In this document: in pieces, positions 9,216 to 10,132 of the stretch | Layout of the letters: each line of letters opens with the position of its first letter | Numbering within the stretch: position 1 is the stretch's first letter | NCBI GenBank assembly: GCA_043807505.1 | Contig: JAZDFW010000066.1 | Coordinates: 1 to 55,234, forward strand | From: Candidatus Omnitrophota bacterium | GTDB lineage: Bacteria > Omnitrophota > Gorgyraeia > Gygaellales > Profunditerraquicolaceae | DNA length: 55,234 nucleotides | Reading direction: 5' to 3' | Translations under genes and position numbers: made by a program | The notes under the pieces: generated by a model | What the model was told of the DNA's origin: nothing | What the model saw: only the letters and a program-made list of their open reading frames with translations | The model's database searches: none

Positions 9216-9917
9216 ATGGTAAGTAAAACAAGAATGTACATAGATAAAATGAACCTTAATAAAATTAGAAGTCTATATTGGCATAAAGAGTACAACGTAG
9301 AAGAAATTGCTGATAGGCTAGGCGTTTCTTTTTGGTCTTTATACAATTTTATGGATAAACACAATATTAATCGCCGCAATCACTCAGAAGCAAGTTATCT
9401 ATTAAATAGATTAAAGCCTCAATTCAAAGTAAAATCAAATCTATCTAACGCGGAAGAAGAATTAAAAATCGCAGGTATCATGCTTTATTGGGCAGAAGGA
9501 ACACTTAAAGGTAATACGGTAGATTTCGCTAACAGCGATCCATATATGATACAGGTATTTTTAAAGTTTTTAAGACAGATTTGTGGTGTTGATGAAAAAC
9601 GATTGCGTCTTTATCTTTATGCATACTCGTATAGTGATTTAAAAGCAATAAAAAAATATTGGCATAAAATTACCGGTATTCATTTAAATCAATTTACTAA
9701 ACCGTATATAAAAGAAGGGAGCTTAAGTAAAAATAATAGGAAACTGCCATATGGATTAGTGCATGTAAGATATAATGACAAGAAATTATTGAAGATAATT
9801 GATAGTTGGATTAAAGATTATACAAATAGCGTTTTAATATGGGCAGGTACCCAAGTGGCCAAAGGGGGCAGACTGTATAAAAGCAGCGTTCTGTCGAAAG
9901 GCAGGATGGAAAAGTAG
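9216..9917 (+). CDS. Free-standing putative homing endonuclease: N-terminal HTH plus single LAGLIDADG-like domain
   Basis: HTH-like LYWHKEYNVEEIADRLGVSFWSLYNFM; AGIMLYWAEG followed by VDFANSDPYMIQVFLKFL; AT-rich; 3' end overlaps tRNA-Tyr 5' exon; start codon uncertain (9216, 9234 or 9249). Confidence 0.7.
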   Translation: MVSKTRMYIDKMNLNKIRSLYWHKEYNVEEIADRLGVSFWSLYNFMDKHNINRRNHSEASYLLNRLKPQFKVKSNLSNAEEELKIAGIMLYWAEGTLKGNTVDFANSDPYMIQVFLKFLRQICGVDEKRLRLYLYAYSYSDLKAIKKYWHKITGIHLNQFTKPYIKEGSLSKNNRKLPYGLVHVRYNDKKLLKIIDSWIKDYTNSVLIWAGTQVAKGGRLYKSSVLSKGRMEK

Positions 9918-10132
9918 GTGAATTCAGGGAACCCCTTGGCCTTTGATGTGCCAAGGGCAATCCTGAGCCAAGCCCGCTAATTTTTTATAGCGGGAAGGTG
10001 CAGAGACTAAGCGCCTACTACCTAAAGCTATTAGCTATGGTAATGAGATAGTCCAAGCCTCGGGGTAACCTGAGGGCACTTGAAATCTGTTGCACTTGTG
10101 CTTCAGAGGTTCGAATCCTCTCCTGCCCACCA
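9841..10132 (+). tRNA. tRNA-Tyr(GTA) split by a group I intron; exons 9841-9876 and 10083-10132
   Basis: Joined exons give GGGCAGG/CCTGCCC acceptor stem, GCAGA-CT-GTA-AA-TCTGT anticodon arm, long variable arm GCAC-TT-GTGC, AGAGG-TTCGAAT-CCTCT, ACCA; Thr-Tyr-Gly order is the classical cluster. Confidence 0.92.
9877..10082 (+). ncRNA. Group I self-splicing intron, 206 nt, IC3-like, no internal ORF
   Basis: P1 CTGT/GCAG with U-G at the splice site; P3 AGTAGGTG (9913-9920)/CGCCTACT (10012-10019); P4 TTCAGG/CCTGAG; R GTGCAGAGACT; S GAGATAGTCC; GNRA loops on P2 and P9; terminal G at 10082. Confidence 0.93.

Follow-up and report, generated by a model that had tools for sequence, protein, structure and literature searches.

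A group I intron inside the anticodon of tRNA-Tyr(GUA) in an Omnitrophota genome, and the open reading frame family found beside it

How does a bacterium read tyrosine codons when no tRNA-Tyr gene is called in its genome? The question is raised by a contig of 55,234 nucleotides (nt) from a Candidatus Omnitrophota bacterium; this whole stretch of DNA is called the window below. The genome is a metagenome-assembled genome (MAG) of 1.26 Mb in 99 contigs, 94.6% complete, in which default ARAGORN reported 32 tRNAs, none of them tRNA-Tyr. In the window, neither default ARAGORN nor the Rfam tRNA model called a tRNA between the genes for tRNA-Thr and tRNA-Gly, just as an earlier note on this DNA had foreseen when it proposed that annotation tools may overlook an interrupted tRNA-Tyr gene at this place. 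The gene is present, and its anticodon is split between U35 and A36 by the sequence at 9877-10082, which is very probably a genuine and still functional group I intron of the type found in small bacterial tRNA introns (IC3-like).

The intron belongs to the group I family, as the Rfam model RF00028 matched window positions 9781-10075 with 89.6 bits (E 1.2e-21), compared with a curated gathering cut-off of 50 bits; the 5' part of this match was misaligned into the DNA upstream of the intron. When introns were permitted, ARAGORN called, unaided, a tRNA-Tyr(gta) with a 206-nt intron placed 'actgt-Intron-aaatc', at the same coordinates at which the earlier note had put a group I intron in tRNA-Tyr(GUA). 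The scripted excision of 9877-10082 left a canonical 86-nt class II tRNA-Tyr(gta) with a long variable arm, as judged by ARAGORN. Moreover, the intronless tRNA-Tyr genes of relatives correspond to exon 1 joined straight onto exon 2. The parts of the interrupted gene are as follows.

9841..9876, plus strand: 5' exon of tRNA-Tyr, 36 nt, with the acceptor, the D arm, the 5' half of the anticodon stem and the loop through U35
9877..10082, plus strand: group I intron, 206 nt, with no open reading frame (ORF) inside; recognized by RF00028, intron-aware ARAGORN, alignments and covariation
9883..9886, plus strand: internal guide GCAG, pairing with exon CUGU at 9873-9876 as P1, with U.G at the 5' splice site
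9887-9895 with 9900-9908, plus strand: P2, with GAAA tetraloop L2 at 9896-9899
9914..9920, plus strand: 5' strand of P3, partner at 10012-10018
9924-9929 with 9961-9966, plus strand: P4, enclosing P5
9933-9939 with 9951-9957, plus strand: P5, inside P4
9967-9969 with 9998-10001, plus strand: P6
9973-9976 with 9991-9994, plus strand: P6a
10003..10009, plus strand: 5' strand of P7, with one bulged A and its partner at 10049-10054, forming a pseudoknot with P3
10019..10042, plus strand: P8, containing the internal motif CCUAAAG / CUAUGG, which is similar to the 11-nt GAAA-tetraloop receptor
10055-10057 (AAG) with 10079-10081 (CUU), plus strand: P9.0
10058-10064 with 10069-10075, plus strand: P9, with a GUAA loop
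10082, plus strand: terminal omega-G
10083..10132, plus strand: 3' exon of tRNA-Tyr, 50 nt, with A36, the rest of the anticodon loop and stem, the long variable arm, the T arm, the acceptor and an encoded CCA

The 5' exon terminates in ...GCAGACTGT (RNA ...CUGU), the intron opens with ATAAAAGCAG (RNA AUAAAAGCAG) and closes with ...CACTTG, and the 3' exon opens with AAATCTGT (RNA AAAUCUG). In the window alone the boundary is uncertain by one base, as the intron and exon 2 both begin with A. Among 42 distinct homologous sequences, 41 retained the junction context AGACTGT/AAATCTG, and the first intron base was G in 23, A in 13, C in 4 and T in 2, while the last was G in all 42. Because some of the homologous introns begin with G, C or T, the insertion lies after U35 and before A36, where it separates the second anticodon base of tRNA-Tyr(GUA) from the third. 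This settled the ambiguity in favour of the 35/36 position read earlier from the window, and the placement agrees with the group I rules of a U at position -1 and a terminal G. The introns in the homologue set were 181-290 nt long, with a median of 215.5.

The structure of the intron is conserved as well. RNAalifold, run on 11 sequences, gave P1, P2, P3, P4, P5, P6/P6a, P8 and P9 together with the tRNA stems; the P7 pseudoknot and the cloverleaf pairs were added by hand before pairs were counted in a pre-tRNA alignment of 45 rows, 42 of them distinct. Over the 42 distinct pre-tRNAs, 96.3% of the 3566 cells were standard pairs, and changes on both sides that preserved pairing were found in 54 of the 86 pairs. 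None of 500 column shuffles attained any of the five covariation measures, and pairing fell to 36-51% when the 3' partners were slid by 1-3 columns. Compensatory changes were spread over most helices: P2 (8/9 pairs), P3 (3/7, with 97.3% paired), P4 (3/6), P5 (6/7), P6a (4/4), the two segments of P8 (4/5 and 3/3) and P9 (6/7). The middle pair of P9.0 was A-U in 39 sequences and C-G in 3, which makes one compensatory pair, and the anticodon stem of the tRNA was paired in every case, with compensatory changes in 2 of its 5 pairs. All four pairs of P1 were formed in 42/42 distinct sequences, each with U.G at the splice site, P7 paired identically in 42/42, and the core made up of P7, J6/7 and J8/7 was invariant. 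The window sequence by itself folded at -117.7 kcal/mol, compared with -93.9 +/- 5.6 for 200 shuffles (z = -4.27), none of which was equally stable.

The helices P1-P9 had been drawn before from the letters of the window, and all of them, including the GAAA of L2, the P8 motif and the GUAA loop of P9, were recovered by RNAalifold and the pair counts. With its 206 nt the intron is also as near in size to the minimal Azoarcus ribozyme as the earlier note had supposed, and with P1-P9 only its architecture is compact, like that of the small bacterial tRNA introns. Some homologous introns carry extra inserts relative to this compact form. One optional module follows the 5' strand of P7 (loci L044, L050, L053, L054, L057), and another, of about 50 nt, follows P9 (loci L011/L040, L036, L042, L047, L055). 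Each is conserved in sequence among its carriers, which suggests that both may be additional peripheral helices.

The loop of P2 and the receptor-like motif in P8 vary together. L2 GAAA and the P8 motif CCUA(A/C)...UA(U/A)GG occurred together in 32 sequences; the motif was present in 32 of the 33 sequences with GAAA in L2 and missing in 6/6 with GUAA, in which P8 had a plain UCC/GGA helix instead. There were 4 exceptions to the association among the 42. Covariation of this kind would be expected from a tetraloop-receptor clamp.

If catalysis follows the usual group I route, as we infer, bases C32-U35 (CUGU) of the pre-tRNA exon would pair with the guide GCAG; the resulting P1, whose U.G wobble marks the splice site, would stack on the anticodon stem formed by both exons. 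The P3-P8 and P4-P6 domains would build the active site around P7, by analogy the guanosine-binding helix, and L2 GAAA docked in the receptor-like motif of P8 would clamp the two domains together. An external guanosine would attack after U35; the terminal G (10082), placed by P9.0, would enter the G site, and the free 3'-OH of U35 would attack before A36, so that the exons would be ligated into the 86-nt tRNA-Tyr.

RNA of relatives was available as assembled Logan metatranscriptome contigs (word shares 0.06-0.09), of which X15, X16, X17 and X20 were compared at 85% likeness. Intron-carrying contigs were present in three of these RNA libraries, and DNA carry-over is possible for each: record 1 of X15 spans 9837-10072 with 27 differences, record 18 of X17 spans 9865-10194 with 22 differences and 26 gaps, and record 23 of X20 spans 9881-10125. 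In record 9 of X16 (depth 2.5), position 9876 was joined to 10083 with exactly 206 nt skipped. This contig, which differs from the window by 5 letters and 4 gaps in its exon 2/tRNA-Gly part, may equally come from an intronless relative.

The exons of tRNA-Tyr matched two loci only in the genome, and both carry an intron. The earlier note had made splicing essential if this was the only tRNA-Tyr gene. In the 94.6%-complete genome there are two intron-bearing genes, the second on contig C92. Since no intronless tRNA-Tyr was found, splicing of the intron is probably essential, and the reading of tyrosine codons in this cell probably hinges on RNA self-splicing. Contig C92 (10.4 kb) is syntenic with window positions 2261-10133 at about 68% nucleotide identity, and carries a separate ORF and a separate intron-bearing tRNA-Tyr, with a 222-nt intron (RF00028, 90.6 bits) and compensatory differences in the T stem. 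The final 141 bases of C92 are identical to part of contig C76. The C92 region is either that of a co-binned relative or an old duplication.

Two versions of one region in one bin mean that the bin is not clonal, and they are what could be expected if the intron-bearing gene were foreign or a chimeric join produced by assembly or binning. We give this explanation next to no weight, as the window is a continuous contig of 55 kb, the order tRNA-Thr, ORF, intron-bearing tRNA-Tyr, tRNA-Gly recurs in dozens of independent assemblies, and DNA contigs from several studies contain large parts of the stretch. It is also conceivable that the intron is a decaying relic in a pseudogene and that the functional tRNA-Tyr lies on unassembled DNA, as tRNA genes often go unassembled and the MAG, with its 99 contigs and 32 detected tRNAs, is 94.6% complete. 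We consider this highly improbable. The exons are identical or nearly so to the intronless tRNA-Tyr of relatives, every tRNA stem still pairs, the catalytic core is invariant, and the helices covary over 42 sequences. Moreover, in the search of the phylum sample, several intron-bearing genomes that are 94-99% complete showed a single match, which carries the intron.

RF00028 matched the whole genome three times. The third match is a group I intron of 234 nt on contig C93 (32573-32780, 65.7 bits) in a tRNA with the anticodon CAU and a C1xA72 mismatch, which looks like an initiator tRNA. ARAGORN placed this intron after U33, in agreement with the rule of U at -1 and a terminal G, and default scans missed this gene too. 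Default ARAGORN also called no tRNA for Asp, Ile(GAU), Ala(UGC) and several Ser, Leu and Val isoacceptors in the whole genome, probably because of unassembled rRNA-operon regions.

Several points weigh against a genuine and functional intron. P1, of 4 base pairs (bp), and P7 are invariant, and because their pairs never vary they have conservation and no covariation in their favour. No P10 was evident between the 3' exon and the guide region; we assume that the anticodon stem replaces it in aligning the 3' exon, as in other tRNA introns. The IC3 label comes from architecture and not from a subgroup-specific model, and the RNA contigs of relatives give no decisive sign of splicing. At 94.6% completeness and 2.18% contamination, the MAG could have an intronless tRNA-Tyr in its unassembled part, and the second intron-bearing copy may derive from a co-binned relative.

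The intron is widespread yet patchy in Omnitrophota. It is present in 9 of 60 relatives from the same family and order, most of the others having an intronless gene. In an even draw of 400 Omnitrophota genomes it was found in 24 (22 full-length and 2 partial matches), including 8 of the 60 genomes of the window's own family, and BLAST gave no match in the other classes of the phylum in this sample. These counts are lower bounds, because BLAST misses diverged copies. In genus g24, 2 of 17 genomes carry the intron, which indicates gain or loss on a short time scale. A clearly diverged intron occupies the same 35/36 site of tRNA-Tyr in three Patescibacteria genomes (L080, L094, L096), and when a Patescibacteria intron was used as the query on a sample of 400 Patescibacteria genomes, 4 whole-length and about 5 more partial matches were obtained. 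In its distribution the intron behaves like an element scattered over Omnitrophota that has a diverged counterpart in Patescibacteria, and it is often linked to an ORF in the spacer upstream of the tRNA-Tyr gene.

These three Patescibacteria genomes (G443-G445, loci L134-L143) also contain other group I introns, each of which immediately follows a U in the anticodon loop. As placed by ARAGORN, they lie after U33 in tRNA-Phe(GAA) and tRNA-Thr(UGU), at 34/35 in tRNA-Leu(UAA) and after U36 in tRNA-Thr(GGU).

The tRNA genes on either side of the interrupted gene, whose order Thr-Tyr-Gly is conserved, and the spacer ORF are located as follows.

9133..9208, plus strand: tRNA-Thr(UGU), the upstream neighbour (ARAGORN; Rfam tRNA, 71.7 bits)
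9216..9917, plus strand: ORF of 233 codons (ORF listing, family search, models)
10136..10209, plus strand: tRNA-Gly(UCC), 3 nt 3' of tRNA-Tyr (ARAGORN and Rfam)

A scan for sigma-70-like promoters found no plus-strand site between tRNA-Thr and tRNA-Gly, a weak hint that the region from one to the other is co-transcribed. Further downstream, the listed start of another plus-strand ORF (10180-10959) falls within tRNA-Gly; its match to thymidylate synthase is weak and partial (PF00303, 38.9 bits, residues 130-251), and it may encode a diverged enzyme of the ThyA-like or pyrimidine hydroxymethylase-like kind.

The spacer ORF, which had gone unremarked in the earlier note, starts 7 nt past tRNA-Thr and fills the whole Thr-Tyr spacer of 632 nt, which in relatives devoid of the ORF measures 13-140 nt in 15 of 16 cases. 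With no stop codon ahead of tRNA-Tyr, its frame continues across the 5' exon and ends with a TAG at 9915-9917, within the 5' strand of P3. Its conserved core is 9216-9839 (208 amino acids), modelled as an N-terminal helix-turn-helix (HTH) and a C-terminal alpha/beta domain of about 130 amino acids that has no fold match. The core has at least 718 relatives among clusters at 90% identity, all unnamed or 'hypothetical', and relatives are encoded in 166 species genomes. In 91 of the best 120 relatives, the C-terminal tail is the translated 5' exon of tRNA-Tyr, often including the start of the intron, in one of three frames; such tails are an independent sign of a widespread linkage between the ORF and the tRNA.

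In the best 80 loci, the ORF is followed by an intron-bearing tRNA-Tyr in 35, with 3 more that are cut or partial, by an intronless tRNA-Tyr 5-36 nt further 3' in 32 (mostly Patescibacteria), and by tRNA-Thr in 6; the remaining 4 are contig ends or unresolved. A match to the family was found in 68 of the 400 Omnitrophota genomes, with up to 4 per genome. A close full-length orthologue was present in 13 genomes of this sample, of which 10 have it next to an intron-bearing tRNA-Tyr and 3 next to an intronless one. Seen from the side of the intron, 10 of the 24 genomes that carry it have the ORF adjoining the gene, 2 have ORF remnants only, and 12 have no adjacent ORF. Thus a strict linkage of ORF and intron was rejected, on the grounds of those 12 genomes, the 32 intronless loci among the best 80 and the 3 Omnitrophota genomes with an intronless tRNA-Tyr. 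The anticodon stems in these last three cases (L114, L115, L116; G334, G187, G180) are unlike the CAGA/UCUG of all other alleles. This would fit a target site in the anticodon arm, though the cases number three and their lineages are distant.

The same counts bear on whether the intron, though a real group I intron, needs a protein helper in the cell, be it a chaperone, an aminoacyl-tRNA synthetase or the ORF product acting as a maturase. A P1 of just 4 bp and the lack of an evident P10 speak for a helper, an ORF with a nucleic-acid-binding HTH adjoins the gene in 10 of the 24 genomes, and many group I introns use protein cofactors, as stated in the accessible text of PMC3984707. As regards the ORF, half of the intron-bearing genomes have no adjacent copy and 2 more have remnants only, genus g24 has the intron and not the ORF, and the family also adjoins intronless tRNA genes, both in the 32 loci mentioned above and in 15 of 17 fetched paralogues. 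As regards helpers in general, the ribozyme core and the L2-P8 clamp look complete. A dependence on a helper is therefore improbable, and self-splicing by the intron RNA is the reading that we prefer.

The paralogues just mentioned are distant, with 30-46% identity and up to four per genome, and those 15 of 17 adjoin tRNA genes directly. Their sites are upstream of Thr(GGU), Lys(CUU), Glu(CUC) and Leu(UAA) and downstream of Val(GAC). Overall, family members adjoin Tyr, Thr, Lys, Glu, Leu and Val tRNA genes in Omnitrophota and Patescibacteria, and their reading frames often enter the tRNA before any stop codon. At least 4077 representatives at 50% identity were found with a profile of the C-terminal domain, some of them with the domain in tandem.

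Searches for a function of the ORF product gave little beyond its N-terminus. In 41 family members Pfam matched N-terminal HTH families only, and PHROG matches to 'HNH endonuclease' were confined to residues 15-62, that is, to the HTH. AlphaFold models reached a predicted local distance difference test score (pLDDT) of 84.6 for the whole protein and 93.4 for the C-domain; Foldseek comparisons of both models with PDB and BFVD returned nothing at E <= 0.001, and the best fold matches, to OmpA-like/YfiB domains at template-modelling (TM) scores of 0.36-0.42, were taken as noise. A sequence-profile search of PDB gave no match, and the ESM Atlas gave 'hypothetical protein' clusters only. No catalytic motif or fold of a homing endonuclease (LAGLIDADG, HNH, GIY-YIG, PD-(D/E)xK) was found in the ORF by Pfam, PDB profile or Foldseek. 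A LAGLIDADG reading of 'IAGIMLYWAEGT' was considered and dropped, as Pfam, the PDB profile and Foldseek on two models gave it no support.

The ORF is present sporadically, inserted at conserved sites and found in multiple diverged copies, as selfish elements are. With its clean insertion into short conserved spacers and its copies each tied to a particular tRNA, it behaves, as judged from its sequence context, like a selfish site-specific element. We infer mobility for the intron, and one could speculate that the ORF is the founder of a new class, a putative free-standing homing endonuclease or other site-specific DNA enzyme for tRNA genes that in Omnitrophota would form a collaborative-homing pair with the ORF-less tRNA-Tyr intron; we regard this as possible, though on balance unlikely. 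In such a pair, tRNA-Tyr alleles free of the intron would be cleaved in or close to the anticodon arm; the 35/36 intron would shield the allele that carries it and would travel by co-conversion, and the architecture of the class would be an HTH plus one or two copies of the domain of about 130 amino acids.

Collaborative homing of an ORF-less intron with a free-standing endonuclease is described in the accessible parts of PMC6083498 and PMC2790892 for F-CphI and the cyanophage psbA intron, and for T4 mobE and I-TevIII. The locus resembles these systems in having an ORF-less group I intron and a sporadic gene directly beside the interrupted gene, here as a clean insertion into an otherwise short spacer. 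In contrast to them, the ORF showed neither a motif nor a fold of a nuclease in the searches above, and its family is also found beside intronless tRNA genes.

The intron itself has a close architectural counterpart. The Azoarcus intron, a small IC3 ribozyme of about 205 nt, is inserted after the third anticodon base of tRNA-Ile(CAU) and has the same L2-P8 tetraloop-receptor arrangement. Both introns are compact (206 nt here), directly follow a U in the anticodon loop of a tRNA and contain no ORF; they share a GAAA-capped P2, a receptor-like motif in P8, a GNRA loop on P9, a terminal G and a U.G at the 5' splice site. The comparison is one of architecture as generally known, not of sequence, and the introns differ in host, which here is tRNA-Tyr(GUA) in Omnitrophota, and in position, which here is after U35, within the anticodon. 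The Azoarcus pre-tRNA-Ile intron is named as a bacterial tRNA case in the accessible text of PMC3984707. That of PMC8450103 and PMC4033280 covers the group I introns of cyanobacterial and plastid tRNA-Leu(UAA) and of cyanobacterial tRNA-fMet, which are self-splicing and, like the present one, located in the anticodon loop and sporadic, with lateral transfer suggested for the fMet intron. The tRNA-Leu intron also splits the anticodon, at 34/35, the position that we observed in Patescibacteria tRNA-Leu(taa). Both differ from the tRNA-Tyr case in host tRNA and in position.

Taken together, the bacterial hosts named in the parts of these three sources that were accessible (PMC8450103, the tRNAscan-SE 2.0 paper, and the reviews PMC4033280 and PMC3984707) are Leu, fMet, Ile2/Ile and Arg tRNAs of cyanobacteria and proteobacteria. 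Both the site and the tRNA described here fall outside this classical list. A 2017 paper (PMC5733544), as far as its accessible text goes, applied the name 'group I introns' to inserts of 22-49 nt in the tRNA-Arg, Gly and Lys of cyanobacteria. Inserts of that length are far too short for ribozymes. No description of a group I intron in a bacterial tRNA-Tyr was found in the literature searched, and a 2025 preprint on Patescibacteria may already cover the site or the tRNA. To judge from its title alone, that preprint reportedly concerns group I introns at a non-classical site in Patescibacteria tRNA genes, which fits the 35/36 insertions in other Patescibacteria tRNAs of which the earlier note had spoken. 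The Omnitrophota intron lineage is clearly diverged from the 35/36 introns that we observed in Patescibacteria tRNA-Tyr.

These results extend the small set of bacterial tRNA hosts of group I introns by tRNA-Tyr and by an insertion point after the second anticodon base, and the host phyla by Omnitrophota. To standard tRNA finders such genomes seem devoid of tRNA-Tyr, and this distorts completeness checks as well as the inference of the genetic code or of auxotrophy for ultrasmall bacteria. The 42 natural variants, of 181-290 nt and rich in covariation, offer a data set for comparative work on a minimal group I fold. The family of ORFs adjoining tRNA genes is a lead on how such introns, and tRNA clusters generally, get invaded, and it could prove more novel than the intron itself.

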